The notes: generated by a model not told the origin, from the letters alone. DNA of 64,000 nt from Promethearchaeota archaeon (GCA_019057795.1 JAHLWS010000005.1:1-64000), one strand, 5' to 3'. Positions 1 to 39,782 are shown, numbered from the stretch's first letter. Numbers and translations are program-made.

Positions 1-201
1 AATATTCCTTAGTAAAATCTTTCCTGAATTGGGTCTTAATAGTTTTGCAATTAGCTTAAGTGTCGTGGTTTTCCCAGCTCCATTTGGACCTATTAATCCA
101 ATAATTTCACCATCTTGAACTTCCAAATTAATATTATCAAGAGCTAAGAAAGAGCCATATTTCTTACTAATGTTTTCCAATTTGATAACGGTTTTTGTCA
201 T
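1..201 (-). CDS. ABC transporter ATP-binding protein (5' part; runs off the window)
   Basis: Manual translation from ATG 201: MTKTVIKLENISKKYGSFLALDNINLEVQDGEIIGLIGPNGAGKTTTLK (Walker A). Confidence 0.9.
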   Translation of the reverse strand, partial: MTKTVIKLENISKKYGSFLALDNINLEVQDGEIIGLIGPNGAGKTTTLKLIAKLLRPNSGKILLRNI

Positions 202-1970: not shown

Positions 1971-2097
1971 ATTAAAGTCATTTTTGTCAATATTATTATC
2001 TTTCCTTAGATAAGTTTGCTTTACATTTCTGACATTTAATTTTTTCTATTATTTTATTTAAAAGTTATATGGACCCTCTTTATGTTGAGTTTAATTC

Positions 2098-2270
2098 TTC
2101 ACGATGAGTGGTATTGTGTTGAATGTCAAGATAACGATCGCATCTGGTATCCCGCACATGGTAGTGAAGAAAATAGAAGACAGCACGACTATATTAATTA
2201 TTACTATGAACACAAAGAAAAATTTGAAAAGAAATATCTAAACAAAATTAAAGGAAAGTCGGATAAATAG
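2098..2270 (+). pseudogene. 3' fragment paralogous to the Zn-finger gene at 38822-39352
   Basis: HDEWYCVECQDNDRIWYPAHGSEENR...KEKFEKKYLNK versus HDEWYCTECHENDRIWYPAHGSAENR...KEKFEKKYLNK; DNA similarity continues past the stop (aatag-t/c-tctgcca). Confidence 0.85.
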
Positions 2271-2300
2271 TTCTGCCAGATTGGCAAAAATATTTCTAGT

Positions 2301-2420
2301 TGGTATCCAAAGGATGTCGCATTGATCATTGGGGGTATAATCATTGGAGGTTTAATCGGGCTTTTAAGTTTATCAATCTACCGGAAAAGAAAACGACTGA
2401 AGTTTTTCAAAGAACAATGA
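2301..2420 (+). pseudogene. Orphan C-terminal TM anchor plus basic tail (surface-protein sorting-signal remnant)
   Basis: Translates WYPKDVALIIGGIIIGGLIGLLSLSIYRKRKRLKFFKEQ* with no start codon. Confidence 0.45.
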
Positions 2421-2452
2421 CTATTTTTAAAATATATTAAACTCTTCTCTAT

Positions 2453-2950
2453 TTAGATATTTAACTTGTCACATATATTTAAGGCAATAATTTCCCTTGT
2501 AACTTGGGCTTCACATTTTTTCCATGATTCCAGTTTCTTAATTTCTTCCCAATCTTTTTCGGTATAATTTGTCCATTTAATCTCGTGTTCTTCCTCTAAA
2601 TCATCAAAAATGTTATCAGAAATTACATATTCTTCAACCTTATAAGGATATTTCATAAATTTTTTTCCATTTTTCCACATTACACTTATCAAATCTTCTA
2701 GTTTAGAATAGAGAAACGAATTCTCTAACTCTTTTCTTAATTCTTCGTATTTCTGTTCTTGAAATGGTTCAGTAATGAAAAAACATCTATGTCGACAACT
2801 AAAGTTTACAATTTCCTCTTTAGTAATCGTTACTCCAAAGTTAGTCAAGTTTTGAATATTAGGGTCCTCATCTTCCCCCATTTCTCTGGCAATTTTGTAT
2901 AGTGCAATTTTGATTTCTTTAATTTTATCTTTATTCAGCTTAGTAATCAT
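2453..2950 (-). CDS. Hypothetical protein
   Basis: 165 aa ORF, no recognised motif. Confidence 0.65.
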   Translation of the reverse strand: MITKLNKDKIKEIKIALYKIAREMGEDEDPNIQNLTNFGVTITKEEIVNFSCRHRCFFITEPFQEQKYEELRKELENSFLYSKLEDLISVMWKNGKKFMKYPYKVEEYVISDNIFDDLEEEHEIKWTNYTEKDWEEIKKLESWKKCEAQVTREIIALNICDKLNI

Positions 2951-3092
2951 TTATCCCTCTTGATTTATATCCATATAGAACCGCCTTAGTTGAAAAACAT
3001 TTATAACAACTTTTGAGGATAAAAAATAACTTATTGATTTTATGTCAATAGACTTAAGCGATTTTTAGGTTTTTTGAATAATTTTTAAACAA

Positions 3093-6092
3093 ATGAGAAA
3101 TAATAATTATATTATGGTCTTGCTAAAAGACATCGAAATCGATATAAATCAGATTAAGCGTTCTACAAGTGAGCATCAAATAGAGCATTGGTTTAATAGC
3201 TTATTTGATAATTTGGAATTGAATTATCAACCACAACTAAGAATTTTAAACGGAAAACCAGATTGTTTAATTGGAGATATCATTATCGATTTTAAATATA
3301 ATTTAAAAAAAAAGGAAATTAATGCTTGGGCAGCCAAAAAAGGTAAACAATATGTTCAGGAATATTACCAAAAAAGGGGTAAAAATCCATCCTTATTAAT
3401 AGTTATATCGGAAAAATATATCCTTTATTACGATAAGGATATTTCTTTAAGAAATGAGAGAGAGTTGAGCAAGGAATCGATTGTATCATTAATAGAGTGC
3501 CTTTTTGAGCCAAAATCGGTAAATTCAGAACAATTTGCTGTACTCTTTGGCGTTAATTCTCCATTATACATCTTAGCGTATTCAAGATTAGAAACTCATT
3601 TTGACGATCATCATGGAGAAAAGACAGTATGCTTTGATCAATGGAAACGTCACTTTAGATTAGCGTACCATGATGATGAAGTGGGAAAAGAGCTTTTTCT
3701 TAGGCATTCTTACCTTAGTACCCTTTTAAAATTGATTTTATATAAAGAATTCATGAATCCAGAAGAATATTCACGAGATTATTTTAAAGACTTAGAGAGT
3801 TATTTTGAAAAGAGAGGTATTTCGTTATTCCATTACGACTTCTTTCGTTGGGTTATTAATGTTCAAAACTTCTGTGATGATTATTTCGAAAAATTAAAAA
3901 TAATGGATTTCGAAGCAACCGATATCTTTCGAACAATCTATCAAGAAATGATAATAGCTGGAGTACGCCACCGTTTAGGCGAATATTATACGCCAGAAAT
4001 ATTATGTAAAAAAATGGTCGAAAAATCCTATTCAATAGGTGATCGGGTTTTAGATTCTTCCTGTGGTTCTGGTACATTCCTAATTGAAATTTGCAAAAAA
4101 ATTGATTCACATTTTGCCCTTAAAACAAATGAAAAACCACCAAAAGAATGGTTTAGTGTTGTTAATAATATTTTTGGTTTTGATATTAATCCAATTGCTG
4201 TTTTGACATCAAAAGCGAACCTATTATTATATTTTAAATCGCAAGAAAGATACATCGAAGATATTTCAATTAATATTTATCTATGTAACTCAATTGATCC
4301 AATTGAATTTTCTTCTTACGCTGATCTTGAGTTAGGAAGTTATTATTCGTTCTGTGTTGATCTATTAGAAGAAGAAAGAGAATTAAGGATTCCAGGAGAG
4401 GCATTGTCAGAGAAAAATATTCAATTCTTCCAAAACATTGTTAATGCTCTTTATAGAGTATGGGAATCGTTTGATAATTACAAGGATACTTGGGAAGCGG
4501 CAACTCACTCTTTAGAACCTAAACTAAAAAACACTTTTTTTGACTCAAATGAAAAAGTAGTAAAAGCAATTGAGAAGTTCTTTAATGAACTATACATATT
4601 AAAGCTACAGGATAAAGATCATATCTGGTTATATCTTCTCAACAACCTTGTAGGTATACATTTATTATTGTTAAAAAAGAAAATGGATCTGATAATAACC
4701 AACCCACCCTGGTTAACTTATAAGGATGCTGATAAAAGATTAAAAGAAAACATGAAAAAGATCACATCCCAATTTGGGATTAAACCTGCTGCTAAAAATG
4801 TAACAAACATAGAGGAAGCAGTAGTTTTTCTTTTTAAAATACCAGATTTATATTTAAAGAAAGACGGTTCAGGTAAAATTGCTTTTGTTATGCCGCGTTC
4901 ATTGTTAGTATCCTCTCAAAATGAAAAAGCAAGGCGGTTTGACCCATTCAATAATATTAGTTTTTTCGTATTTAACGATTTAATATTCAATATTGATTGC
5001 TGTTGTATTTTTGCTAATTACAACAAAATTAAAATCGATAAAAACACAGTATTTCAGAAATACCCTATTAAATGCGAATGCTTTGATTCAGAAGGTCTTG
5101 AACTTATCGAAGATTATGAATTAGAACCATATGTCTATTTTGAAAGTAATAGAAAAGAGAAATATTTAATAAAAAAACTAATTCAATCAGAGAAGAAAAA
5201 GAAGCTTCTACCAATTAAATTATCAGATTACTATAAGAAATTTATCCAAGGGGCGGATTTAGTACCGAAATCCTTACTTTATTGCAATGTAGTAAATGTA
5301 ATTGAGCATGGCAAAATATCCCTTATAGATCCATGGATTTCTCCGCAAGCGAAGGGAGTATGGAAAAAGAGATATTATAATAATGTAAGAGTCGAAACAG
5401 AAAATGTTTTTCAAGCAACGCTCTCTCGTGGTTTATATCCATTTTATATGAGACCATATTCAATATTTTTACCTTTGGATGCTAATTATCGATTTAGGCT
5501 CTCTAAAATAGGACCATTTAGTAGAAAACATTGGAATACTATCAATAAGATCTATAAAAAACATACGAAATATGATTTATTTGAAGTTGGGATAAATTAT
5601 AGGAATAAACTATGTACAGATAGAACAGTCAGACCTTCTCAACGCGAACAATATAAAGTAGTGTTTCCAAATGCTAAAAAATTGTGTTCTGCTGTTATTG
5701 AGGACCCTGAAGGAAGAATCTATATAGATTCTACTCTCTATTATTATGGAGCCGAAAGTAAAGAAGAAGCTTATTATATCTGTGGAATGCTGAATATTCC
5801 TGAACTTTATAAAAGTGTTAAAGTGATCAGTGATACTAGACACCACCATAAAAGACCACTCTATTTTAACATTCCAAAATTCACTAGTAGCAATGATCAG
5901 CTAAAAATTGCCGGTATTTCAAAATCTTGTCATGATCAAGTAAAACTTTTATTTGAAAATAATGAGAAAGTTAAAGAGAACGAGACATATGACCTAATAA
6001 AGGATAAACTCAGAATTATCCAAGAAATAGGGCTTAAGATTTTAAAATCTCCAGAATCTCAAGAAATAGTAAAAGAATATATGCTTAAATAG
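3093..6092 (+). CDS. Type IIG-like restriction-modification fusion (PD-(D/E)xK + N6-adenine MTase + TRD)
   Basis: N-terminal KPDCLIGDIIIDFKY; GEYYTP; motif I DSSCGSGTF; motif IV NPPW; 999 aa. Confidence 0.85.
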   Translation: MRNNNYIMVLLKDIEIDINQIKRSTSEHQIEHWFNSLFDNLELNYQPQLRILNGKPDCLIGDIIIDFKYNLKKKEINAWAAKKGKQYVQEYYQKRGKNPSLLIVISEKYILYYDKDISLRNERELSKESIVSLIECLFEPKSVNSEQFAVLFGVNSPLYILAYSRLETHFDDHHGEKTVCFDQWKRHFRLAYHDDEVGKELFLRHSYLSTLLKLILYKEFMNPEEYSRDYFKDLESYFEKRGISLFHYDFFRWVINVQNFCDDYFEKLKIMDFEATDIFRTIYQEMIIAGVRHRLGEYYTPEILCKKMVEKSYSIGDRVLDSSCGSGTFLIEICKKIDSHFALKTNEKPPKEWFSVVNNIFGFDINPIAVLTSKANLLLYFKSQERYIEDISINIYLCNSIDPIEFSSYADLELGSYYSFCVDLLEEERELRIPGEALSEKNIQFFQNIVNALYRVWESFDNYKDTWEAATHSLEPKLKNTFFDSNEKVVKAIEKFFNELYILKLQDKDHIWLYLLNNLVGIHLLLLKKKMDLIITNPPWLTYKDADKRLKENMKKITSQFGIKPAAKNVTNIEEAVVFLFKIPDLYLKKDGSGKIAFVMPRSLLVSSQNEKARRFDPFNNISFFVFNDLIFNIDCCCIFANYNKIKIDKNTVFQKYPIKCECFDSEGLELIEDYELEPYVYFESNRKEKYLIKKLIQSEKKKKLLPIKLSDYYKKFIQGADLVPKSLLYCNVVNVIEHGKISLIDPWISPQAKGVWKKRYYNNVRVETENVFQATLSRGLYPFYMRPYSIFLPLDANYRFRLSKIGPFSRKHWNTINKIYKKHTKYDLFEVGINYRNKLCTDRTVRPSQREQYKVVFPNAKKLCSAVIEDPEGRIYIDSTLYYYGAESKEEAYYICGMLNIPELYKSVKVISDTRHHHKRPLYFNIPKFTSSNDQLKIAGISKSCHDQVKLLFENNEKVKENETYDLIKDKLRIIQEIGLKILKSPESQEIVKEYMLK

Positions 6093-6404
6093 ATTTTAGG
6101 GAGATTGAGAAGATTATCTATAGATCAAGAGATTTCTTATATCGACAATAAGCTACATAGTCCTGAACATCATCTGAATCCATGATTTCTTCCAAAACTC
6201 TTTCTGGGGTTGGATTTTTTTAAGAGAATTCCATACCTTATTATTAAAAATCTTACTACTTAAAATCCTCAGTAATTTCAATACATTTAAAATAATAAAA
6301 ATCTTATTTTTATTTAATTCAATAGTTTAACAAAAATGTAAATTAAACAAAAATTATCGTCTAATTTATTAATTTCTATTAAATATAAAAAGGTGTAAAA
6401 AAAT

Positions 6405-6806
6405 ATGTTAAAACATCGTGAAGTAGTAAGGTGGTTCTTAATTATCGACTTTCTGATAGGTTTACTTTTTGCAGGAATCTTTGTAATCATTCCAGATCTC
6501 TTCTTAAACTTTATAAACTGGCCTATTTCTGCTGCTGATCACCAAGCCTTATTTGGCTACAGAATACTCGGTGCAGCTATGTTTGGCCTTTCTGTTGCTT
6601 CCTTTCTGGCATCTTTTGAAGATAAATGGGAAGAAATTAATGTAACAATGGAAATGCAATGTATTTGGCTTTTAGGAGCAATTGTAATGATGCTATGGGG
6701 TCATTTTAATTTAAGTCTCCCGTTAGAAGCTTGGTTCATTGATGTTATACTCATCGTGTTATTTTTTGGATTCTTAATTCTCTCCTTGATTGAAAGAAAT
6801 GTTTAA
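6405..6806 (+). CDS. 4-TM membrane protein
   Basis: 133 aa, four hydrophobic helices. Confidence 0.75.
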   Translation: MLKHREVVRWFLIIDFLIGLLFAGIFVIIPDLFLNFINWPISAADHQALFGYRILGAAMFGLSVASFLASFEDKWEEINVTMEMQCIWLLGAIVMMLWGHFNLSLPLEAWFIDVILIVLFFGFLILSLIERNV

Positions 6807-6960
6807 TGCAAATAGAAAACCTATAGAAATAACTTCGAAATCAATTTATTCCAAAAATTTATTTTTCTTTTTTTTGATGATTATTACTTTGATATTACAA
6901 TTAAATATTACGTTATTGGATTTGAAGTGGCCTTCCTAACAGCTCTAATGAAGTATTTGA

Positions 6961-7077
6961 TGAAAAAGGCGTAGTTTAAAAACATTTAAACTGAATTATA
7001 GTGTGCTAACGAAAGATGAAGTAAAGAAACTTTTCCTAATCTTATCTCAAGGATTTTGCTATACTTAAGGCAACAGC
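6961..7077 (+). pseudogene. 5' remnant (with upstream region) of a paralog of the wHTH gene at 35804-36154
   Basis: GTG 7003: MLTKDEVKKL(frameshift)PNLISRILLYLRQQ versus MLSSEEMKRFYPQLSSRILLFLRQQ; upstream AT-rich promoter-like sequence is also similar. Confidence 0.75.
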
Positions 7078-7200
7078 TTGACCAGGTGACTAAATTTATT
7101 TAAAATTAAAAAATTTACAATGAAACAAATAATAGGTAAAATACTTTAGAAAAATATTATTTGTAGATTCTTTATAACTTTCGATTGATATATAAAAAAT

Positions 7201-7671
7201 ATGAAAGAATGTTTTGGTTTATACATAGGTAACGATACGGATTGCTTTTGGGACGATCGATCTGGATGGTCTGTCGTACATGCTTGCAAACACCCATGTC
7301 ACTGTTATGCTGTAGGGTATAGGGGGAACCTACCTTCCACTCACCCGTCTTACTTAATATTTCGTCGCGAATCCCATTTAGTTTTAAATTTAGTAGATAT
7401 GGATCACCTAGATGACCGCTTTATGCGCCCTATCATAATGGCATTCTATAGTTTCATGGATGAGAAGGAAGGGCAAAAAATCCTAATACATTGTAATAAA
7501 GGTGAATCGCGTGCACCGAGCCTAGCTATCCTCTATTTAGCAAAACGCAGAAAAAAGATCCCAGATGATTCTTTTGATGCTGCAAAACAATCTTTTAAAA
7601 AGATTTATCCTATATATAATCCTGGACGAGGTTTTAATAAATATTTACATCAATATTGGGATTCTTTATAA
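7201..7671 (+). CDS. Dual-specificity/PTP-family phosphatase
   Basis: CX5R active site IHCNKGESRAPS. Confidence 0.85.
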   Translation: MKECFGLYIGNDTDCFWDDRSGWSVVHACKHPCHCYAVGYRGNLPSTHPSYLIFRRESHLVLNLVDMDHLDDRFMRPIIMAFYSFMDEKEGQKILIHCNKGESRAPSLAILYLAKRRKKIPDDSFDAAKQSFKKIYPIYNPGRGFNKYLHQYWDSL

Positions 7672-7693
7672 AGTAAATACAACATAAGCGATA

Positions 7694-7731
7694 CTATCTC
7701 CCTCCCCCGTGTTGCTCCCTCCTAAAAAAGT
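7694..7731. repeat. C-rich 38-bp intergenic repeat, copy 1
   Basis: CTATCTCCCTCCCCCGTGTTGCTCCCTCCTAAAAAAGT. Confidence 0.85.
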
Positions 7732-7870
7732 ATGGGTAGAACAAGGTCAAATTAGAGAATTTTAATATCCCTTATTCCCTGAGAGATACTCTCGATCACC
7801 CAAAGGGCTAATGTTGTGGTTTAAATAGGATTGCAGTACTTTTCAAAAAAATTAATTAAATATTTAGTTT

Positions 7871-8515
7871 TTACTGCTCTTCTTCTATTTTTTTAAGAAC
7901 TGCACAAATGTTAGGAAATATTTCTTCAAGTTTAGTTATTCCGGTGTTCCTTACTAATTCTTCAATAGATATTCCCTTTTCCCTTAAAACTTGTTTTATT
8001 TGTTTTTTAATTGCTTTTCTCCCCGCGGACTCTCTTTTTCTTGACAGGTCAATTTTTACACCCAATTTGAGTTCCACCAATTTAGCAACTTCCTCCTCAA
8101 TAAAAACTTCTGGTCCTCCTATAATACAAAATAAAATGACATTATTTGGTCCTGTTTTACATTTTATTAAGAATGCTCCTTGGAGGGGTAGAACTTGATT
8201 GACACTTATACCTTTAGATTTTAAATGTTCCTGAATCTCGATTGCTGCATTCTCCTTAATGTGTTCCCCATCCACAATGAAAATAATTGAATTTGTCCGA
8301 AATTTTTCAGATAATAAAGGGATAGCATTAAGTGCATCCAGCCCTGTTTGTTTCTTAAGCGGTGTATTAATAGAAAATATTGCTTTATCATATCCATTAA
8401 ATTTCTTACAGAGATTCTTAAATATAACACTCTCAGGAAATGTTCCATTACCAGAAATTATTAAGTAATAGGAATCAATACCCTTAATACTCTCAACCAA
8501 TCTCATCAAAATCAC
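7871..8515 (-). CDS. Putative TOPRIM-like partner of the adjacent ABC ATPase
   Basis: Co-oriented downstream of the ATPase; IIFIVDGE and IEEE acidic motifs are suggestive only. Confidence 0.5.
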   Translation of the reverse strand: MILMRLVESIKGIDSYYLIISGNGTFPESVIFKNLCKKFNGYDKAIFSINTPLKKQTGLDALNAIPLLSEKFRTNSIIFIVDGEHIKENAAIEIQEHLKSKGISVNQVLPLQGAFLIKCKTGPNNVILFCIIGGPEVFIEEEVAKLVELKLGVKIDLSRKRESAGRKAIKKQIKQVLREKGISIEELVRNTGITKLEEIFPNICAVLKKIEEEQ

Positions 8516-8524
8516 AACAAGGGT

Positions 8525-9484
8525 TTATAATCGAAGTGCGTCTAATAACAAGCGTGGGTCTGTGTTCGCATCTAATAAATCTTCTAATTCATCTAAAGTT
8601 AATATTTCATGACTTAAAATATCCTCATTTGACTTAGTCAATTGGATAATTGTAGTATCTGGTGGTTTAATATCTACCAAGTGATATAACACATCGATAC
8701 TATGGGTTGAAATTATTGTTTGCCATTTTTTACTCTTCAACCATTTTAGGAATAGTTTGATCATTGTAGGGTGAAATCCTGCTTCAAAATCATCAATTAT
8801 TATAAGTTTAGGTGATAGTACCTCAAATATCGCCATAATTTTTATTAATTTCTCTGCTCCAGATCCAAGATCTTTCAATTTGAGATATACATTGTTATCA
8901 GGATATACTTTTCTCAAACTAATAGGCTCAAGAAAAACAAGTTCGCTATAGACATCATTAACACATTCATTAAGGAATTTTGCGAGTTCAATATGATATC
9001 CTTTTTTCATTATTAATTCCTTAAGAACCTTCATTCTATTTTCTAAATCTCTCAGTATAAATGTAGTAAATGGAATGAATAATACCATTTCATTTCTTTT
9101 TGTTGGTGGCACTTCAAACTTTTCAGAGATTTTATTACCTATAGACATTTGATTGTTATTCCAATACGTACTGGTAGCATTTTCACTTATTTCAATAACT
9201 GCATTTGAGTTTTCAATCCCAAATTGTAAAGTTGAAGTTCCTGCATAAAGATAGAGAAGATCTTTAATTGAACCTTGGTGTAGTTCTTTTAAAATATCGA
9301 ATTTGTTTCTACCGGTTATGTAATCATAATCTTTTGGATCAGGTAATAAGGATAATGCTTCTAATATTGATGATTTTCCGGCATTATTCTTTCCAATTAA
9401 AACTGTAAAATTACTAAATTTTAAAGTTTTATCACAAGCCTTAATTCCTCTAAATTCTTTAATATTTAAACTGCTAACAAACAT
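8525..9484 (-). CDS. ABC-type ATPase (AAA_15/AAA_21-like, defence-associated)
   Basis: IKEFRGI start, Walker A GKNNAGKS, signature LGSG, Walker B IIIDDFEAGFHP, H-loop STHS. Confidence 0.85.
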   Translation of the reverse strand: MFVSSLNIKEFRGIKACDKTLKFSNFTVLIGKNNAGKSSILEALSLLPDPKDYDYITGRNKFDILKELHQGSIKDLLYLYAGTSTLQFGIENSNAVIEISENATSTYWNNNQMSIGNKISEKFEVPPTKRNEMVLFIPFTTFILRDLENRMKVLKELIMKKGYHIELAKFLNECVNDVYSELVFLEPISLRKVYPDNNVYLKLKDLGSGAEKLIKIMAIFEVLSPKLIIIDDFEAGFHPTMIKLFLKWLKSKKWQTIISTHSIDVLYHLVDIKPPDTTIIQLTKSNEDILSHEILTLDELEDLLDANTDPRLLLDALRL

Positions 9485-9640
9485 GACATCTCAATTTATT
9501 CTCTTTTAAATTTCTTTAATATAATATAGTATTAATAACTGATATATTTAGAGTTCTACAAATTAAACTTTACTTCATTATTATCTTAACCTATAATAAA
9601 TACAATAGAAATATATAATTTTTCTTATTCTCTACTATAA

Positions 9641-9678
9641 TTATCTCCCTCCCCCGTAGTGCCCCCTCCTAAAAAAGT
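9641..9678. repeat. C-rich 38-bp intergenic repeat, copy 2
   Basis: TTATCTCCCTCCCCCGTAGTGCCCCCTCCTAAAAAAGT. Confidence 0.85.
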
Positions 9679-9886
9679 AGAAAAATTGAAGTTTAATAAT
9701 TATTCGACCTTTTAGACTGAAACCTTATCCAAATTTCTCAAATAAAGGGTTATTTTATCATTATAAAGGTTAATTAGAGAGAATATCTTACTTATATATA
9801 ATATTCAACAATTCAATTAAGTGCTTTAATTTAAATATTAGATTAGATTAGCTATTAACTATATGAATTTAAATTAGTGACCAAAT

Positions 9887-10138
9887 ATGGCAAAAAAACA
9901 AAAAAAAAGAGATACTTATAGATATAAGTTAAAGGAAGGTAATGAAATTCTGAATTTTGGCATAACAGATGATCTAAAAAGAAGAGAATCTGAACATAAA
10001 AGTGAAGGAAAACAATTCTCTAAAATGGAAAAAGTTGGACCTGCGGTCACCAGAGAATCTGCCCTTAAATGGGAAAGGGAAAGTATCAAAAAATACAAAA
10101 AAAGTCATGGTGGAAAAAGTCCAAAATACAACAAATAG
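9887..10138 (+). CDS. Small GIY-YIG-family nuclease
   Basis: YRYKL...NFGITDDLKRRESEH...ALKWE...YN pattern; 83 aa. Confidence 0.7.
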   Translation: MAKKQKKRDTYRYKLKEGNEILNFGITDDLKRRESEHKSEGKQFSKMEKVGPAVTRESALKWERESIKKYKKSHGGKSPKYNK

Positions 10139-10167
10139 GAATTACCTCTTACTATTTCTAGTTTTAG

Positions 10168-10205
10168 TTATCTGCTTCCTCAGTGTTTTCCCCTCCTAAA
10201 AAAGT
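10168..10205. repeat. C-rich 38-bp intergenic repeat, copy 3 (diverged)
   Basis: TTATCTGCTTCCTCAGTGTTTTCCCCTCCTAAAAAAGT. Confidence 0.75.
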
Positions 10206-10401
10206 GGGTGTTGAATAAAATCAATTGGTTGTAAAAAGATTTATTATTTAAAACAGCTTGAGTGCAGGAGTGGGTTTTAGAAGAACATAAATATGAATTT
10301 GTCGCAATTTTGATTGAAATCGATTAGGGGAGATTTGAATCTAAAATAAAAAAGAATTACTTTGAGCATAAATTTTTTAGGAAGATTTATTATGTGATTT
10401 A

Positions 10402-11502
10402 TTGATGGAAACGAATACAAACTTTGAGGAAATTATTCGAGAACTAAATGAACGCGATCTGGAACGATTTAAAAACTTGTCTGATCGCTTTAAACTCCAA
10501 TTAGATAAGATAAAAGATGGATTCGCTCCACCGATTTTAGAAAATTTGAATAATTTTTATTTGGATATATTAAATCATCTCGCTGAGGGTTTCAAATTTA
10601 GATTAAAATTAGTTATCGATACAAATATTATTTTCAGTGAAATAAGAGCAATCCTAATGGGCAAACCTTCATTTTTAAGTAATTTAATTAATATTCCATT
10701 TTTAGAACTATTTGCTCCAAAAAAAATTAGAGAAGAATTATTCAAGACAATAGAAGAAGATTTGCCACCTAATTTAGACAAGGAAAATGCTTATTCCTTA
10801 GCTTATTTTTTTTTTGAAAAAATTAGTATTTTAGACCAAGAAAATGAAGAAGCTTGGGAAAAAGCTCATATCTTACTAAAACAATATGATAAGGATGATA
10901 TTCCTTTTTTAGCATTAGCGATTTCTCTAAATGCACATGGAATAATCACTAAAGACAAACATTTCAATAGACAAGAAGATATGAGCGTCTGGAAATTAGG
11001 AATAAGTGGTAAAGTAACTTCAACAATCTCAAGAGGTGTTTTTTCTCTTTATATCATAGATTATAGCTTTAATAAAATTCTCTTCACTTTAGCAAGGTGT
11101 ATCTTTATTATTTTTCAGGGGTTTCTTGAGTTTTGCCATGAACTTTATTCTGCTATTAAAGCTGCTTTTATTTCAATGCATGAAAAGTATTCTAATTTAC
11201 CCACATGGCTACAAGTAGGTATCCCTGTTATAATCATAACAATTCCTACTTTAATTTTAATTTTTTCAGAAAAAGCTCGTAATTCATTAAAAGATTTCAT
11301 TATAGATTTAAAGGATAATTTGAGTCTATTTATAAAACATTTCAGTGATGATTTGAAATTTAATATCGAAATAATAAAAAACCTAACAATAAAATTATAT
11401 CCTTTTTTTGAATTAGTAATTGAAGGTATGGGCTATCTCTTTTATTCAGCTATTTTACTTGCTAAACAAATAAAGACATTAGAAGATCGATCTGTAATTT
11501 GA
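10402..11502 (+). CDS. PIN-domain nuclease with C-terminal membrane segments
   Basis: LVIDTNII, DKDDIPFLALA and IITKDKHF PIN motifs; TM helix VGIPVIIITIPTLILIF. Confidence 0.75.
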   Translation: MMETNTNFEEIIRELNERDLERFKNLSDRFKLQLDKIKDGFAPPILENLNNFYLDILNHLAEGFKFRLKLVIDTNIIFSEIRAILMGKPSFLSNLINIPFLELFAPKKIREELFKTIEEDLPPNLDKENAYSLAYFFFEKISILDQENEEAWEKAHILLKQYDKDDIPFLALAISLNAHGIITKDKHFNRQEDMSVWKLGISGKVTSTISRGVFSLYIIDYSFNKILFTLARCIFIIFQGFLEFCHELYSAIKAAFISMHEKYSNLPTWLQVGIPVIIITIPTLILIFSEKARNSLKDFIIDLKDNLSLFIKHFSDDLKFNIEIIKNLTIKLYPFFELVIEGMGYLFYSAILLAKQIKTLEDRSVI

Positions 11503-11639
11503 TGAAACTATGATTTTTATCAAAAAGTTTAAATTATCTTAAATTAAGTTGTATTAAAAGAAGTGAAATAGAAAAAGTATCGAATAATGAATTTTTGGAA
11601 TACTTAGTGGATAAGGACAAATAAATTAAAACAGATCAA

Positions 11640-12809
11640 ATGATAAATTTAAGAAATAAAGTATTTTATATAATAATTTTTTGTTTTTCTTATGCTGTTT
11701 TCATTATAGTTGGATTAGGTCTTATGAGTAGATTAAATTATTATACAATTTTCTATACTTTAAAGGGTGATGATATTGTTGATAAAGAAGTATCCTTTGG
11801 GATGAATTTTCTCGGAAGTTTTATAAATTGGTCAGATTCAAATACCTATATTCTATTTTTTGAGGATAGTTTTCTGCTTTTATCCAATTTCATCTATTAC
11901 GCTTATGTTTTTTCTCATGTGATAATTTTAATTGGTTGGATCTTATTCACCTTGTCTAGTGCCAAGAAAAAAAAAAAGCTTGCAATTAGTATCTCCTTCT
12001 TTATTTACATTGGGATCTATATTTTTCTTATTTTTTATATGCCCTTAAGATTAGATCGAATGGTAGATCAAACAAATTTGAAATATATAGAGTTAAAGGA
12101 GTTTAATCCACAAATAACTTATCTTATTTTAAGCTCACCTGCTCCCTACTGTGAGATTTTCATTTGGTTTCCCATTATTTCACTCATTGCTTTTTATCTT
12201 ATTAATTATCTCTCTTTTCAACAATTAGTTGAGAAATTCGCATTTATCCTAAAGAGAGAGATATTTTTCAGAGATTTTTATGAAAAAGTTATAAAAAAAT
12301 ATAATGAAAACGAATATTGGGACATTAAAGAAACACTAGAATGGTGGAATAAGAGAACTCCTCCTCTCGTGAAGAAGCAAAAGCAAATTAAATTTTGTAA
12401 AATAGTTTCATCATTTGCAAACTCACAAGGAGGATTCATTATAATAGGCATTTCCAATTCATTTCCTCGAGAAATAATAGGAGTACCTAATATTGAAAAT
12501 TGGATGAAAGATCTCGAAGAGAAGCTGTTAAGATGGATGAGGTTTGAGAATAAATTCTATAGATTAAAAGAGATACTTCTTCCAAATGAAAATAACCAGA
12601 TGAGGAGATGCATTGCTCTCCTGATATTTCAGACTAAAAAACCCGTTTCGGTTGAAATAACTAAAGGAACATTCTTGTATGGTAAGAGATTAGGTTCAGA
12701 GAGCGTCTCAATTGACCCTAAAATATTAATTAAAGAAAAAAAAGAGGTCTCTAAATTAAACATTGACTTTCTCGAGGAAATGATAAAGGAATATGACTTG
12801 AGTTATTAG
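11640..12809 (+). CDS. Multi-TM protein fused to a Schlafen/AlbA_2 domain
   Basis: About four N-terminal TMs; ENEYWDIKE and VSSFANSQGGFIIIGI match the AlbA_2 signature. Confidence 0.75.
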   Translation: MINLRNKVFYIIIFCFSYAVFIIVGLGLMSRLNYYTIFYTLKGDDIVDKEVSFGMNFLGSFINWSDSNTYILFFEDSFLLLSNFIYYAYVFSHVIILIGWILFTLSSAKKKKKLAISISFFIYIGIYIFLIFYMPLRLDRMVDQTNLKYIELKEFNPQITYLILSSPAPYCEIFIWFPIISLIAFYLINYLSFQQLVEKFAFILKREIFFRDFYEKVIKKYNENEYWDIKETLEWWNKRTPPLVKKQKQIKFCKIVSSFANSQGGFIIIGISNSFPREIIGVPNIENWMKDLEEKLLRWMRFENKFYRLKEILLPNENNQMRRCIALLIFQTKKPVSVEITKGTFLYGKRLGSESVSIDPKILIKEKKEVSKLNIDFLEEMIKEYDLSY

Positions 12810-13086
12810 ATATAAAAGAATAACATAAAAATTTATTATTTAAAAATGATGAACTTCTTTATAAAAATAAATAAATTCAATTAAAATCTTGAAGTGATTA
12901 AAAAACCATCTGAAATCTTATTTAATATTTTTCTCGTATTGCCCTATTGGATTAATTTAAGGAGCGGAGATTATATTTTTCATAATGAAGAAATATTTAA
13001 TTCTCTATAAAAAAACAATAAAATTGAATCAGATACCATCTCAGGTTTGAAAAATTATATACTCAATATTCTGTCTCCTATAATTA

Positions 13087-13123
13087 TTAATTCCTTCCCC
13101 TATGGGCCCCCTCATAAAAAATT
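13087..13123. repeat. C-rich intergenic repeat, copy 4 (closest to the rps11 3' end)
   Basis: TTAATTCCTTCCCCTATGGGCCCCCTCATAAAAAATT; 13097-13112 is 15/16 identical to 39397-39412. Confidence 0.65.
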
Positions 13124-13333
13124 ACTGCTATTATATTGAAATTTCTTGCTTTTATAATATTTTAACACTATTATATATATAAGTGAATAGAAATATGGAG
13201 GATTAAATTCACTGTATTTTAAAAAAGAGTTATAAAGTATGAATGATAAAGAAAGTGTATTTAGATTAGTTTTAGATCTGGACACTTAAACGATTAGTGT
13301 ATTTTAAAAAAGTATTATGCTAATATGCATTAA

Positions 13334-14989
13334 ATGTTTCCTTTAGAGATTTATTTCGTTCTAACTTTAATTTTATTTATAAGCACTATACTCTTTTACA
13401 TCTCAAAAATTAGGGAATATAACTCTCGTAAATCTCAGTATATAATATTGATCTTATTGGTAATCATGTGTGCAATTTACTTTTCAAATTTGGGTTCATT
13501 TAATCCTTCAGACACAGAAGATCCTGTTGAAACCGCAATTTTTAGTGGATTTTCATATTTATTACTATTTTTTTCTGTTTTTGTATTCATTAAATCTTTT
13601 TTTCCTTCTGACCAAGACATTATTGAATTGAAACCCCCTTCAAGATATAGAGCAAGAAAAGGTATTATTGAAATAGGAAAAGTTATGAAAAAAGAAAGAA
13701 AGAAACACAAATTCTTTCTCTCCCTTAAAGATCTTGAAAGACATATGTTCGTATGTGGTACTACGGGCTCTGGGAAGAGTAATTTCTTACAATATCTCTT
13801 AACCAACTTTAAAAAACACTATGATATTCCTTTCTTACTTGTAGAATTTAAGGGGGAATACACGTTTTTACAAGATATAATTGAAGATATGTTAATAATT
13901 AGACCTGGAGAAAATTTTTCTATAAATATATTTAATCCAGAGGGGGCCAATCCAGAAATTCACGCTGAAAGAATTTTTAATATTCTAAAAAGTGGACAAT
14001 TTTTAGATGAGCAATCGGAATTCTCCCCTCAAATGGAAAAAGTCTTGGTGGATATTTTAACAATAGTATGTAGTAATCCACAATATCAGAGCTGGAAAGA
14101 TTTTTTTAACCAATGTGAACAGTATCTAGAAAAGGAGAAAAGAAATATCCCTATGCTACATCAGAGTCTTGTTAGTATTCAAAATAGAATTAGAAGATTT
14201 TCATTGGGACCATTAAAAGCTATTTTTTCTACAAGGTATAAATTGAAAGTAAAAGATCTATTTGACAAGAATATTCTAATCGATCTAAGCTCTATTATAC
14301 GATTAGGTGGAGAAAAAGAAGATGCTCTATTTTTTCTAAATATGGTTTTAAAATATTTATGGGATAAAAATATAACACAAGGAGCGTATCAATTCAAAGG
14401 CATAAAGCACCTGACAATTATCGAAGATGTACAATATTTTGCACCAAAAGATTCATCATCCCAATCCAAATTGACAACTTACTTAGAAGATATCGCACTT
14501 TTACAACGAGGTACTGGCGAATGTTTGATTTCAATTGCCACACGCCCTCAAGTAAGTGGCGAAATTTTAGCAAATTGTGGCGTTTTGATTGTATTTAAAA
14601 GTTATATGCAGAGGAGTCTCCTCCGTGAAATACTGAATCTTGAAGAAGAAAATGAAGATTATTTGTCAATTCTAGAAGAAGGACAATGTATTGCCCGTGT
14701 AAACTCTGTAAGGAGACCATTTCTACTTTGGGTTCCGTATTTCGAAAGACACTGGTTAAAACGGGGAGACGTGAATAGAAAAAACAAACAAATTCTAAAG
14801 AGATTAAAGGATAAAGATAAACCAGATATTAAACTAAATATAGAAGAACTAAAGCAAAATACTAAAAAAGAAATAAAAAACAAAAACAAAAAAAAAGGTT
14901 CTAAACCTCATAAAAAGAAAATTTCACTGGAGAGTAATGGATTTAAGCATAAGATTTATTGCAAATTTTGCGGAAAAGAAGTAGAGTAA
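13334..14989 (+). CDS. HerA/FtsK-like (DUF87) ATPase with N-terminal TMs; C-terminal Zn ribbon cut by an in-frame TAA
   Basis: RHMFVCGTTGSGKS Walker A, IIEDVQ Walker B; the frame continues after the stop as NMEKCEECSTK... to TAA 15100. Confidence 0.8.
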   Translation: MFPLEIYFVLTLILFISTILFYISKIREYNSRKSQYIILILLVIMCAIYFSNLGSFNPSDTEDPVETAIFSGFSYLLLFFSVFVFIKSFFPSDQDIIELKPPSRYRARKGIIEIGKVMKKERKKHKFFLSLKDLERHMFVCGTTGSGKSNFLQYLLTNFKKHYDIPFLLVEFKGEYTFLQDIIEDMLIIRPGENFSINIFNPEGANPEIHAERIFNILKSGQFLDEQSEFSPQMEKVLVDILTIVCSNPQYQSWKDFFNQCEQYLEKEKRNIPMLHQSLVSIQNRIRRFSLGPLKAIFSTRYKLKVKDLFDKNILIDLSSIIRLGGEKEDALFFLNMVLKYLWDKNITQGAYQFKGIKHLTIIEDVQYFAPKDSSSQSKLTTYLEDIALLQRGTGECLISIATRPQVSGEILANCGVLIVFKSYMQRSLLREILNLEEENEDYLSILEEGQCIARVNSVRRPFLLWVPYFERHWLKRGDVNRKNKQILKRLKDKDKPDIKLNIEELKQNTKKEIKNKNKKKGSKPHKKKISLESNGFKHKIYCKFCGKEVE

Positions 14990-16570: not shown

Positions 16571-17620
16571 TCATTCTTGTATCATAGCCTTTTTGAATTC
16601 AGCAATATGAGCATTATTCGCATAAAAGCGTTCTAAAGATTGTTTCATTTCAATAGCTATAGCTTTTATTACTGGGACGGGTACTGAATTAGCTAATTGT
16701 TTATATGCTTGTGTCATTGAAACAGGGAATATAAATGAATCGGGAAATCCTTGCAGTCGCGCCCATTCCCGTTCCGTCATTTTTCTTATCCCCTCGTTAT
16801 TCTTCTTTTTAAGTGGATCATCTCCTGGCCTCCACGCATCGTATTTTATGGTGTCTTTAACCAAATTTCTCTCTTTTCCCATTCCGCCGCAGACGATCGT
16901 ATTGGCCACTTCTTTCCGCCCTATGACCTGGTAACCGAATCCGTGTCCTTTTGCTTTATGACGTGTCCTATGATTTTTTAGCGTGTTCAGATATTGTTGT
17001 GATAAAAAATATTTTGTATTAACATCTTTTTCTAATATATTACCAATTCTAACATTTCTATTTTCGCCTTCAGGAAATTTAAATTTAATATCCTCCCTAA
17101 ATCCAACAATGTATATTCTTTTTCTCTTTTGAGGTAATCTAAAAAGACTGGCATCTAATATTGTGTAATAAATTGTATATCCTAATTCATTCCTTAAAAT
17201 ATCTTCAATAGTGTTAAAAGTTCTGCTTTTATCGTGATTTTTCAAATGTTTAACATTTTCAAGTAGAAAACATAAGGGTTTTTTTTCCCTTATGATATCT
17301 CTAATATAGAAAAAAAGGTTCCCTCTTTCGTCGTTAAAACCCTCCCTATATCCAGCTATTGAGAATGCCTGACACGGAAACCCAGCCAATAAAATATCAA
17401 AATCGGGAATATCTTTGGTAATTACTTCTTTTATATCAGCCTTTGGATTTTCTCCAAAGTTTAATTTGTAAGTTAGACAGCAAAATTCATCTATTTCACA
17501 TGAAAACACAAATTTTATCTGATCTCTGAATGCCTGTTCGAATCCTAATCGAATACCGCCGATACCCGCAAACAGATCAATTGCTTTATATATATACATT
17601 AAATTTATGTCAAAATCCAT
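16571..17620 (-). CDS. dcm: C5-cytosine DNA methyltransferase, M.HpaII-like (copy 1)
   Basis: FAGIGG, GFPCQ, ENV, QxRxR, REWARLQGF; TRD ANTIVCGGMGKERNLV resembles M.HpaII. Confidence 0.95.
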   Translation of the reverse strand: MDFDINLMYIYKAIDLFAGIGGIRLGFEQAFRDQIKFVFSCEIDEFCCLTYKLNFGENPKADIKEVITKDIPDFDILLAGFPCQAFSIAGYREGFNDERGNLFFYIRDIIREKKPLCFLLENVKHLKNHDKSRTFNTIEDILRNELGYTIYYTILDASLFRLPQKRKRIYIVGFREDIKFKFPEGENRNVRIGNILEKDVNTKYFLSQQYLNTLKNHRTRHKAKGHGFGYQVIGRKEVANTIVCGGMGKERNLVKDTIKYDAWRPGDDPLKKKNNEGIRKMTEREWARLQGFPDSFIFPVSMTQAYKQLANSVPVPVIKAIAIEMKQSLERFYANNAHIAEFKKAMIQE

Positions 17621-17728: not shown

Positions 17729-18952
17729 TTATTTTAATTTCCAAAAATCTCTTCCATCCCTATTAATATGAAGAATTTCTTGCTTTCGTACTAATTCACT
17801 TAGTTTAACCTTTAAGAATCTTACATCAAGCATTTCCTTCATTCTTAATTTTGAGACTAAATCATCTAAATCTTGCCATTTATTAGATAGAGTATTAATT
17901 ATATTTTCTTTAGTTATATCTATTATATGAATCTGTCTGGTTTTATCTAATCGTTCTATATCGGGCAATTTTGATTTTAGGGACGCGATTGGGACACTTT
18001 TTTCATATCCTAAAAATATTTTCTGTTTTTCACTTTTTTTTTTTAAAACTACTTTTTTCTTTGAAAGATCTTCTTCTATAATTTCTTTAATTAATTGTTT
18101 GAAATAGTTTTCCCATTTTGTTTTATGTGGTTTTGGCCATTTATTTCCATTTTCAGTTCCAAGTTGTTTTAATTTATTTCGTAATATCTGGGAGTGATTA
18201 GTAGTCCAACTTCCTTTTTTGATCTCATTATTTAATACTTCAATCAATTTAGGAATTTCATTTCTGTGATTAATTAATATTTCTTGTTTATATGATGTCA
18301 TAAAAGTATAGTGAGAATAGGCTACGGGTTTTACTTTTCCTATTTTAGTTATAACTTCATCTAGTATAAGTTCCTTTGGAATAAATTGTGCTAACCTTAA
18401 AAAATTTCTAAAACCTTCAGGGCTATAACCAATTCTTCCATTTGTCGAATATTTCTCGCTTTTTCTTATACCCATCCATTTTATTACTCTATCACCTAGT
18501 AAAGGAATTAAATTTCCAACCATTCTCAAAATTAATCTATTCTCGCTACTAATATCATGTTTAACATCAGTATACCTCTCAGAATCTTTCAAACGTCTTT
18601 TAATAAAACTATGTAAAATTTTTCCAATTGTATGAATTAATGAAGGAGGTTTTTTTCCAGATGTAACTTTTTTTCTACTTGGATCTTCTGGTTCATAAAG
18701 GGCTATACCATCTTTTAACATGTAATCCTTGATTTCCCTTCGAATTTTCAAAGCTGCACTACCTGAAAGAAGAACAAACGCATCTTTAGCCCACTTCTCT
18801 TTTGAGGAATAGATCAATTGCTCTGCTAATGTACTCAGTTCTATTGTAAGATCAATATCAGAAATACCTAAAATTGTCTCCTCATTAGTCATATCAGCTT
18901 CAAAGATCTCATCTTCATTCTTTATTTTATCTTCATCAATAATACCTGACAC
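17729..18952 (-). CDS. Hypothetical protein with probable C-terminal winged helix
   Basis: 407 aa; sits in the operon between the GHKL gene and dcm. Confidence 0.65.
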   Translation of the reverse strand: MSGIIDEDKIKNEDEIFEADMTNEETILGISDIDLTIELSTLAEQLIYSSKEKWAKDAFVLLSGSAALKIRREIKDYMLKDGIALYEPEDPSRKKVTSGKKPPSLIHTIGKILHSFIKRRLKDSERYTDVKHDISSENRLILRMVGNLIPLLGDRVIKWMGIRKSEKYSTNGRIGYSPEGFRNFLRLAQFIPKELILDEVITKIGKVKPVAYSHYTFMTSYKQEILINHRNEIPKLIEVLNNEIKKGSWTTNHSQILRNKLKQLGTENGNKWPKPHKTKWENYFKQLIKEIIEEDLSKKKVVLKKKSEKQKIFLGYEKSVPIASLKSKLPDIERLDKTRQIHIIDITKENIINTLSNKWQDLDDLVSKLRMKEMLDVRFLKVKLSELVRKQEILHINRDGRDFWKLK

Positions 18953-22246: not shown

Positions 22247-23180
22247 ATGAATATATATAAAGCCATAGATCTTTTCGCGGGCATCGGCGGTATTCGTTTA
22301 GGATTCGAACAGGCTTTCAAAGATCAGATAAATTTTGTGTTTTCATGCGAAATAGATGAGTATTGCCGCAAAACATACTTTAACTGGTTTTCCGTGTCAG
22401 GCATTTTCTATAGCAGGATATCGGGAGGGATTTAACGACGAAAGAGGAAATTTGTTTTTCTATATTAGAGATATTATTAGAAAAAAACAACCAATTTCAT
22501 TTTTTTTAGAAAATGTAGATAATTTAATTACACATGATAAAGGTCGTACATTTTCAATAATTAATAATATCCTTGAAAGTGAATTAAAATATTATATCCG
22601 CTATAAGATTTTAAACGCAATGGATTTTGGACTTCCACAGAGAAGAAAAAGAATATTTATAGTAGGATATAAGAAAAATTTAAGGTTTGAATTTCCTAAA
22701 GGCGATAGTGGAAATCCTATGGTTGATGATATTCTAGAAACCAAATTAGTTGATGAAAAATATTATCTTTCTCAACAATTATTAAACACGCTAAAAAATC
22801 ATAGAACACGTCATAAAGCAAAAGGACACGGATTCGGTTACCAGGTCATAGGGCGAAAGGAAGTTGCTAATACGATCGTCTGCGGCGGAATGGGAAAAGA
22901 GAGAAATTTGGTTAAAGATACCATAAAATACGATGGTAAATTAGATGAGTTTTTAAAAATTGTTGAGCTTGTGTTAAACAAAAAACCTCAAAATATCGAC
23001 CTTGAAATGAAAGATCAGTATAGGCTTAAAATGGATGTAATTATGTTAAAATATATCGGTTTGAATAAAAAAGATGTTATAATTCTTTATAACGATTTGA
23101 TCAATTTAGTGAAACAAAGAGAAGAGAGAGCAACAAGTATAAAACGCGAGAAAAAGAAAAAAAATAATAATAAAAATTGA
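22247..23180 (+). pseudogene. dcm: Frameshifted, chimeric C5 methyltransferase (copy 2)
   Basis: Motif I in 22247-22380, then a deletion/frameshift into GFPCQ; lacks motifs IX-X and has an unrelated C-terminus after KDTIKYD. Confidence 0.85.
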
Positions 23181-38847: not shown

Positions 38848-39352
38848 TTTTTTTTTTTTACCATTATTTAAATATTCTTTTTTCCATACCTTTACCATAC
38901 CTATGAAAGACGAACGAAAAATCGTCATCCGAAATGAACGGCTCAAAAAATTTAGAAATAACCTAAGACAAATCTTAATTCGAGCTGTATGGGATGAAAT
39001 CGAAATTTTAACCTATTACGCTAGTTTATACCCACCGCCACTTGACCTTCCACCCGAAGAGGAAGTAGAATTATACTACTTAGAAGGAACGAAACATAAG
39101 CTCTTTAGTCTTATGAGTAGATCTATTTGTAAGTGCGCTCGTTGTTCAAATCAAGAGAATGATATGATATATATCGAAACTCACGATGAGTGGTATTGTA
39201 CTGAATGTCATGAAAACGATCGCATCTGGTACCCCGCACATGGAAGTGCAGAAAATAGATGGCAAAATGATTATATCAATATGTACTATGAACAAAAAGA
39301 AAAATTTGAAAAGAAGTACCTAAATAAAGTAAAAAAGAATTCTAAGAAATAG
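38822..39352 (+). CDS. Zn-finger protein, hypothetical (true start probably 38903)
   Basis: CKCARC...WYCTECH; converges on the rps11 3' end. Confidence 0.7.
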   Translation: MDLFNINPNFFFLPLFKYSFFHTFTIPMKDERKIVIRNERLKKFRNNLRQILIRAVWDEIEILTYYASLYPPPLDLPPEEEVELYYLEGTKHKLFSLMSRSICKCARCSNQENDMIYIETHDEWYCTECHENDRIWYPAHGSAENRWQNDYINMYYEQKEKFEKKYLNKVKKNSKK

Positions 39353-39383
39353 CTCTGCCAATTCGCCCAAATAATGCTTTAGA

Positions 39384-39782
39384 TTAAACCCTGCGCCCCC
39401 TATGGCCCCCCTTGCGCCGGCAATGGTCGTGGGACTTCGGGGTGACTTCTTCTATCCTTCCTACGCGTAGACCAGAACGAGCGAGTGCGCGTATGCATGC
39501 TTGAGCTCCGGGACCGGGTGTTTGGCTTTTATTTCCCCCAGGCGCTCTTACTTTAATGTGAACGCCCAAAACGCCTTTATCTCTAAGATCGTTTGCCACG
39601 CGGAACCCGCACTGCATGGCCGCGTATGGATTCGATTCGTCGCGGTCAGCTTTAACTACCATACCGCCGCTACATTTTGCGAAGGTTTCACCCCCGCTGA
39701 GGTCGGTAGCTGTAACAATAGTATTGTTGTAACTGCTAAAGATGTGAACGATTGCCCACTTTAATTGTTCTTTTTTACTCAT
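39384..39782 (-). CDS. rps11: 30S ribosomal protein S11 (uS11)
   Basis: [38 protein letters not shown]. Confidence 0.99.

Follow-up and report, generated by a model that had tools for sequence, protein, structure and literature searches.

What separates the small groups of defence-like genes that follow one another in the genome of a Lokiarchaeial archaeon, and does the separating sequence take part in their arrangement? The question is raised by a stretch of 64,000 nucleotides (nt) from a Promethearchaeota archaeon (GCA_019057795.1, JAHLWS010000005.1:1-64000), referred to here as the window, which is contig C5 of a 4.95-Mb, 31% GC assembly (genome G000). Within it, a C-rich repeat of 38 nt, with the 31-nt core CTCCCTCCCCCGTGGTGCCCCCTCCTAAAAA, recurs between gene modules. 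The initial annotation offered two origins for this repeat, namely attachment (att) scars left by repeated site-specific integration at the 3' end of the ribosomal protein gene rps11, or cassette recombination sites; either would give an integron-like system accumulating defence genes, with the recombinase acting in trans. The comparison of many genomes gives a direct answer to part of the question: the repeats exist, they are co-oriented, and they mark where homology between genomes breaks. The core itself is very probably an exchange site, while the means by which the exchange would proceed can be stated with far less confidence.

Four copies of the repeat are present in the window, all on the plus strand and all intergenic. 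A scan with the consensus pattern, allowing up to three mismatches, retrieved two of them (7694 and 9641) against 0 expected by chance, and those at 10168 and 13087 were seen by direct reading of the sequence. A profile named R1, a sequence-only covariance model built from 26 copies and run over the whole 64 kb with filters off, returned exactly four: copy 1 at 7694-7731 (E 1e-15), copy 2 at 9641-9678 (E 6e-16), which matches the consensus perfectly, copy 3 at 10168-10205 (E 5e-12) and copy 4 at 13087-13124 (E 1.5e-5), the next match having an E value of 0.1. The four co-oriented, strictly intergenic copies described initially are thus borne out. Copy 1 lies 22 nt past the stop codon of the gene at 7201-7671 and forms the joint between a phosphatase cassette and an ATPase-pair cassette; copy 2 precedes the ATG of the minus-strand gene 8525-9484 by 156 nt, and copy 3 lies 29 nt past the stop of 9887-10138. 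Copy 4, a degenerate member at the right edge of the array, stands 277 nt past the stop of 11640-12809. No Rfam match at gathering score and no tRNA was found anywhere in the window, so that the repeat matches no known structured RNA family.

The role of these copies was assessed by comparing their surroundings in other genomes. Copies were collected from 42 genomes of the genus (21 of which carry the repeat), from an exact scan of 185,579 species genomes, which gave 32 loci, all with Asgard record titles, and from a metagenome scan that yielded at least 120 contigs, 80 of them used. In all-versus-all blastn comparisons of the oriented loci, 55 of 299 homology-block ends fell within 25 nt of the repeat, against 5.9 expected and a maximum of 15 in 2000 randomisations, and only 2 of 156 blocks ran through the repeat with at least 100 nt on both sides. 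Between copies on different contigs, the flank was homologous up to the repeat on the left only in 36 pairs, on the right only in 47 and on both sides in 3; the flanks therefore reassort, since 83 of the 86 pairs sharing one flank do not share the other. Left-linked similarity runs to +16 and right-linked similarity begins at -14, relative to the point between the two GTG triplets at the centre, and these limits define the 31-nt core as the exchange zone. Moreover, copies keep one orientation within an array regardless of the orientation of the genes: all multi-copy contigs of five further genomes are co-oriented (for instance 9/9 copies on contig C34 of G059), as are the multi-copy metagenome contigs (29/29). 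The suggestion that the repeats are cassette recombination sites, with integron-like accretion of defence genes, fits this picture, in which cassettes recur, homology ends at the repeat, flanks reassort and arrays are co-oriented.

The junctions of the window illustrate the same behaviour. The segment 7079-7732, comprising the phosphatase cassette and copy 1, is 94% identical to locus L040, where a different, HEPN-like cassette comes after the repeat; homology to L111 (89%) also ends at 7732, and homology to L106 starts at 7695. From there, 7695-9650 (copy 1 to copy 2, including the ATPase pair) matches L106 at 83%, and 7870-9680 matches L130, in which repeats stand on both sides. The ATPase pair is found between or beside repeats in L106, L130, L123 and L097, and the blocks shared with L106, L130 and L097 end at 9650-9697, around copy 2. 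In L097, the ATPase cassette with its repeat (8850-9697) lies 4.3 kb away from a homologue of window 2457-3909, in an order unlike that of the window. Further to the right, 9803-10216 (a small open reading frame, ORF, plus copy 3) matches L080 at 83% up to the right edge of the repeat, and homology to contig C21 of genome G042 starts at 10191, inside copy 3. Finally, the end of the PIN gene (11168-11533) is 92% identical to L084, where a repeat follows about 75 nt later and no Schlafen gene is present.

The window array is one of two in its genome. Altogether, 26 copies were found in G000 by nhmmer and the profile, 17 of them on contig C78 (58.9-102.9 kb, all on the plus strand and spaced 0.3-6 kb apart), four in the window and the remainder as singletons on C4, C34, C65, C67 and C80. 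Hence 21 of the 26 copies sit in two arrays, with nearly none in the rest of the genome, and the window array belongs, as the smaller of the two, to the same system as that of C78. The copy on C4 (28058, plus strand) is probably a fifth member of the window array, about 9.5 kb to its left, because the last 101 nt of C4 are the first 101 nt of C5 (window 1-101 equals C4:29809-29909, 100%). The first 646 nt of the window also correspond to C4:5590-6234 (93%), and many genomes of the genus contain similar pieces, covering positions 13-200; most likely, a repeated element of at least 646 nt at the window start caused the contig break, and C4 runs on into the window. As a side observation on the larger array, a family of 66-69-aa ORFs, whose paralogues are 69-77% identical, is contained in a block of about 285 nt that recurs on C78 (ORFs at 70015-70224, 76239-76439 and 106677-106877) and is found directly after the repeat, at +22 to +307, in three other genomes (L020, L034 and L042).

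The distribution of the repeat is narrow. In an even sample of 151 Asgard genomes, it was detected in 8 of the 25 genomes of the window's Lokiarchaeial family, spread over four genera, and in none of the 126 genomes from 26 other Asgard families. Many copies in relatives lie at contig ends, as strain-variable junctions would produce, and copy numbers in fragmented assemblies are for this reason probably underestimates. Among viral contigs no exact match to the core was found, and a single 18-nt match (L053) is not a copy of the repeat according to the profile.

A flexible hotspot between two conserved genes on contig C65 (28341-38555; L174 8341-18555) provides a view of how cassettes and repeat arrive together. 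The distance between the conserved flanks is 160-180 nt in G017 and G010, 0.8-1.5 kb in G054 and G008 (0.8-3 kb when G002 is included) and 10 kb in G000, where the hotspot holds one copy of the repeat and a VapBC cassette common to four other genomes. The short versions in G017, G010, G054 and G008 contain no repeat, from which it follows that the repeat comes with the cassettes and is not an attachment site of the chromosome. Whole islands are probably also replaceable through their conserved flanks.

The sequence of the repeat is unusual in several respects. Over 150 aligned copies from many genomes, the 23 central bases (columns 12-34, CCTCCCCCGTGGTGCCCCCTCCT) are 92-100% conserved, the A-run that follows them 80-98% and the tail GTAGGT 43-67%, the best conserved positions being the central T and G of GTGGTG (99%). 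The repeat is far richer in GC than its surroundings. Its central 22 nt form a perfect mirror repeat, identical when read in reverse, and are neither an inverted repeat nor self-complementary. Folding gave no sign of structure: for the alignment, RNAalifold predicts 0 pairs on one strand and 2 on the other, single-strand DNA folds of all four window copies on both strands were no better than those of shuffled sequences (z from -0.67 to +1.03), and a candidate tail hairpin, CTCCTA/TAGGNG, presents no covariation over the 150 copies.

About one copy in eight carries, in addition, a left extension of 65 nt, AT-rich and with two TATA-like boxes; that of copy 2 occupies 9578-9640 on the plus strand. 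This extension has some 50 blastn matches at 75-86% and is kept beside genes that are unrelated to one another. With the extension, 15 of 18 left neighbours lie on the minus strand, versus 49 of 140 without it, and where the extension is present the ATG of the minus-strand left gene is typically 78-97 nt from the core. Most likely, judging from these sequence features, the extension would serve as a portable promoter for the leftward cassette gene. Taking all copies together, left neighbours are 94 plus and 64 minus, and right neighbours 70 and 70. The long form of the element was also considered as a small ORF; this candidate was rejected, as its start codon and frame vary between copies.

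Such features could suggest that the repeat is regulatory punctuation only, that is, a terminator, insulator or protein-binding site of accessory blocks, and that homology breaks coincide with it simply for being located at block ends. In favour of this improbable explanation, copies lie near gene 3' ends on both sides, the minus strand reads as a run of six T, similar to an archaeal terminator, and the promoter-like extension of some copies is tied to the orientation of the neighbouring gene. A purely regulatory element is hard to reconcile, however, with the concentration of copies in two arrays and their near absence elsewhere in the genome, with a single orientation per array whatever the genes do, and with homology that ends in the core or at its edges and not at other places of the intergenic space. 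Furthermore, a hairpin terminator or structured RNA finds no support in folds or covariation, and Rfam gives no match.

The way in which the core would act as an exchange site is a separate matter. In the preferred reading, which has about an even chance or slightly less of being right in full, the repeats would be copies of an exchange site carried by the cassettes. Small cassettes, each with 1-3 genes of either orientation and mostly of defence or toxin-antitoxin function, would be joined head to tail with the 31-nt core as the joint; recombination between two cores would move, swap or stack cassettes, giving rise to co-oriented arrays, and a sequence-specific enzyme encoded elsewhere would catalyse the exchange in trans. 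Such an enzyme is narrowly preferred over plain homologous recombination because the 23 central bases, including the non-C GTGGTG, are near-invariant across species and genera, and because the site is GC-richer than its surroundings.

The search for this enzyme among known families has provided several of the points that weigh against it. Known tyrosine and serine recombinases need dyad symmetry, which the core does not have. No tyrosine recombinase lies near either array, the PF00589 matches of G000 being located on other contigs or 43 kb from the C78 array. When the five recombinases of G000 were used as phmmer queries, a single tyrosine recombinase was recovered among 814 ORFs around 198 copies, in L089. 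In three genomes with the repeat, of which one is 99% complete, a XerA-like protein is the only tyrosine recombinase. No serine recombinase (PF00239) was found in five other repeat-bearing genomes, nor any IS110 transposase (PF01548) in G000 or in four of those five. The recurrent clusters of neighbouring genes consist of cargo only: LRR, Ras/Roc, PIN/VapBC, HEPN, AAA_15, DUF2695, DUF6602, RNase III and DUF3800 (Pfam). A XerA-like PF00589 match (E ~1e-40) is present in each of six repeat-bearing genomes, a non-specific result since XerA is a core gene. The search for tyrosine recombinases linked to the motif thus gave none consistently beside copies, which fits a recombinase acting in trans, as had been supposed from the beginning.

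In L089 itself (2033-8417), two co-oriented copies bracket 6.4 kb containing other genes and a tyrosine recombinase close to those of contigs C82 and C22 of G000 (E 1e-104), which in G000 are not near repeats. No other recombinase was encountered close to a copy of the repeat. The L089 recombinase might belong to an element integrated within the array, or might be a lead to the enzyme.

Other difficulties concern the junctions. Homology breaks fill the whole core, with no sharp crossover point within it, no cross-genome block ends at copy 4, and a repeat is missing from some cassette edges, for instance at 7079, at 9803 and between the PIN and Schlafen genes. In no pair of genomes was one cassette together with one repeat seen to be cleanly gained or lost, the only case being one of reordering, and no circular cassette contig was found (terminal overlap in 0 of about 110 contigs). 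In principle, a short repeat could also lead to the mis-joining of metagenome contigs. Lastly, L027 contains an inverted pair, 2418-2458 on the plus and 3987-4030 on the minus strand, 1.5 kb apart, which is the only locus with opposite orientation; this pair could be the substrate or the product of an inversion. At the right border of the window island, homology of the conserved HerA region with G042 starts at 13253, 130 nt right of copy 4, and G042, the closest relative, has no repeat beside its HerA homologue.

Part of this evidence is what would be expected if the junction role were the same and no dedicated enzyme existed, the conserved core being a hot spot of ordinary homologous recombination between cassettes or strains. 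According to this explanation, which is possible and somewhat less probable than the preferred one, a putative G-quadruplex, i-motif or triplex on one strand may stall replication or transcription and provoke breaks. Homologous recombination needs at least about 31 nt of near-identity. The lack of any linked or consistently present recombinase of the standard families, the absence of dyad symmetry in a core whose 22-nt mirror repeat is made of C-runs, the G4Hunter score of 1.92 on the G-rich strand and the spread of breaks over the whole core all agree with it, and the empty hotspots without repeat indicate that whole islands can be exchanged via conserved flanks. On the other hand, the central T and G of GTGGTG would not be expected to be the best conserved positions if only structure or generic identity mattered, the sequence of the site is unchanged from genus to genus although homologous recombination would allow it to drift, and ViennaRNA with G-quadruplex energies did not choose a G-quadruplex for the core.

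The preferred reading, a cassette-borne site with an enzyme in trans, invites comparison with integrons. Integrons are, to our knowledge, the one system storing and reshuffling cassettes of single genes that is well understood; they rely on folded attC sites and the integrase IntI. The likeness to integron arrays, to clusters of attC sites lacking integron-integrases (CALINs) and to sedentary chromosomal integrons is considerable: small cassettes with a short conserved site at their limits stand in tandem, the sites being co-oriented, the same cassettes are joined at the site in other contexts and occur in other orders in related genomes, defence and toxin genes abound in the cargo, and a recombinase in cis is not required. 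The differences lie in the parts. The repeat is a C-rich mirror repeat of 31-38 nt without dyad or fold, lacking the imperfect inverted repeats (R''-L'' and L'-R') that fold attC into a hairpin, and neither RYYYAAC nor GTTRRRY end cores appear in the 150-copy consensus, whereas both are present in published Asgard attCs. It is near-invariant across genera, whereas attCs conserve structure and not sequence. Genes occur in both orientations instead of being mostly promoterless and of one orientation, and some cassettes have their own promoter-like module next to leftward genes. No IntI-type recombinase with attI was found beside an array, in a search that did not look at the IntI-specific extra domain; CALINs lack IntI by definition, and its absence is not in itself a reason to set the arrays apart from them.

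An ordinary integron cassette array without integrase, or else a remnant of a transposon resembling a miniature inverted-repeat transposable element (MITE), is accordingly a very unlikely explanation of the repeat. Its attraction comes from the small cassettes in co-oriented arrays, which carry defence and toxin-antitoxin genes, and from the reported enrichment of integrons, mostly CALINs, in Asgardarchaeota (PMC9668308). The Asgard integrons described there (Ghaly et al. 2022) have canonical attCs with core sites, GC-rich palindromes with GTTAGGC-type core ends, unlike the repeat, which has no inverted R''/R' cores and no single-strand fold; nor is the core sequence found in the accessible portion of the supplement text of that study (PMC9668308). 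Among the papers searched, none includes the core sequence, and nothing on this site came up among Asgard cassette or defence-island repeats. As for a MITE or transposon end, there are no terminal inverted repeats, copies are not dispersed in random orientation (21 of 26 lie in two co-oriented arrays) and the sequence on both sides of each copy is unrelated.

Other systems resemble this one in single aspects. The pdif modules of Acinetobacter plasmids, among the elements that make use of host Xer, comprise 1-3 genes, often of toxin-antitoxin or resistance type, with a short site served by the borrowed Xer recombinase of the host, and sites of the dif type consist of 28 bp with two inverted arms of about 11 bp and a spacer of 6-8 bp, flanking the modules in inverted orientation. 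The arrays described here share with them the discrete modules of 1-3 genes, the short conserved site, the lack of a recombinase of their own and, with the reservation that it is non-specific, a XerA-like gene, the sole tyrosine recombinase common to all repeat-bearing genomes examined. They differ in that the arms of the repeat are mirrored and not inverted, no dyad being seen in the folds, and in that its copies are direct repeats on chromosomes.

The C65 hotspot, empty or filled with 1.5-10 kb of accessory cassettes between conserved genes, is also reminiscent of the additive flexible genomic islands of Alteromonas type, for which we know of no description of a dedicated, sequence-conserved junction repeat inside. 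Finally, at pilE of Neisseria gonorrhoeae recombination depends on a G-quadruplex upstream of the gene and takes the form of gene conversion of one expression locus. The likeness, which bears on the explanation by homologous recombination only, is that of a short, G-rich, strand-specific element next to promoter-like sequence and tied to recombination of variable cassettes; the pilE element, however, drives conversion of a single locus, and the quadruplex of the repeat is putative.

The system may then be described as an integron in logic and not in parts, that is, a cassette system not based on attC: the repeat bounds and reassorts defence and toxin cassettes in Asgard archaea with a quite different site and no visible enzyme. 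As a tentative extension, it could be the own gene-capture system of one Lokiarchaeia family, mechanistically unrelated to integrons and combining a mirror-symmetric C-rich site with an enzyme outside the tyrosine, serine and IS110 families, or with exchange driven by G-quadruplex, i-motif or triplex, in which case other Asgard lineages would have other sites. If the exchange is enzymatic, the archaea most closely related to eukaryotes would possess an undescribed site-specific recombination system; if structure or homology drives it, the case shows that a defence island can be organised by a short selfish sequence. In both cases the repeat is a practical marker, a scan for which yields hundreds of candidate defence cassettes from uncultured Lokiarchaeia, many without known family. 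The present analysis adds a second array, documents the system in environmental populations, delimits its taxonomic range and removes the hypothesis of an origin from rps11.

That hypothesis, of att scars accumulated by repeated site-specific integration into the rps11 3' end, had been built on a real resemblance: copy 4 is identical to 39397-39412 in 15 of 16 positions, a match unique in the genome. It concerns only the most degenerate copy, and what holds literally for copy 4 does not hold for the repeat family. The family consensus agrees with the rps11 3' end in 18 of 38 positions, a level reached or exceeded by 14,522 windows of the genome, and profile R1 gives no match to rps11 even at E<=10. 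The array, said to lie next to this essential gene, is in fact 26 kb and more than 20 genes away from it (rps11 occupies 39384-39782 on the minus strand), and the main array of the same genome is on a different contig, far from rps11. Moreover, none of about 200 further copies found outside the window adjoins rps11, the large array and all copies of other genomes being unrelated to that gene. The duplication expected of an att site is not seen either, since the repeat does not reproduce the rps11 3' end and the array does not abut it. The match of copy 4, and with it the likeness of the translated peptides, would be due to chance, a degenerate copy happening to resemble G-rich Gly/Arg codons. 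An origin at rps11 is therefore scarcely credible. The motif, while not enriched near rps11 as had been supposed, is yet not scattered over the genome, and the gene gains and losses of relatives end at it.

A different repeated sequence does lie beside rps11. A stretch of about 190 nt (39181-39373, equivalent to 2098-2292) has copies of 82-95% identity, several per genome across the genus, and is also found at C4:22361-22442. The encoded product is a small domain of about 62 aa with Cys residues, which stands alone at 2082-2270 and elsewhere forms the C-terminus of a 176-aa protein whose gene (ORF 38822-39352) is convergent with rps11. As a DNA site this stretch was rejected; it is a small protein-coding domain or protein family instead.

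The cargo of the repeat arrays is defence-like according to Pfam and PADLOC, with mostly defence or toxin-antitoxin genes, and the modules of the window agree with this. The modules named initially as phosphatase, ATPase pair, PIN plus Schlafen and HerA are supported by these databases, the GIY-YIG module having a sub-threshold match only. The phosphatase cassette (7079-7693, plus strand) contains a DSPc-like gene at 7201-7671, whose match to Pfam DSPc (E 2e-7, 31.2 bits) is just below the Pfam cut-off. The ATPase-pair cassette (7871-9484, minus strand) is composed of an ATPase gene at 8525-9484 and a 214-aa partner at 7871-8515, the former being of AbiLi/AriA/OLD type (Pfam AAA_15/AAA_21; PADLOC AbiLi 2e-20 and AriA 1e-19). 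The 83-aa ORF at 9887-10138 (plus strand) possibly encodes a minimal GIY-YIG domain, with a Pfam match below the cut-off (E 0.032, 15 bits) and no match in the PDB. It is followed on the same strand by two Pfam-assigned genes spanning 10402-12809, PIN_2 (10402-11502) and Schlafen/AlbA_2 (11640-12809), which are probably two former cassettes that have lost the joint between them; the PIN protein has only three homologues, all distant, in 400 Asgard genomes.

The HerA-like ATPase gene beside copy 4 (13334-14989) is found in most genomes of the genus at 68-71% nucleotide identity, with two copies in G042 (91% and 96%). Conserved and in some cases duplicated, this gene is not a cassette. Beyond it, the accessory or defence region seems to reach well past the repeat array. 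Three related genes or gene fragments of C-5 cytosine DNA methylases are located within 11 kb, at 16571-17620 (minus strand), 22356-23180 (plus strand) and 26628-27574, with pieces of 68-89% nucleotide identity, and beside them lie two large ORFs without family (17729-18952 and 18965-21556).

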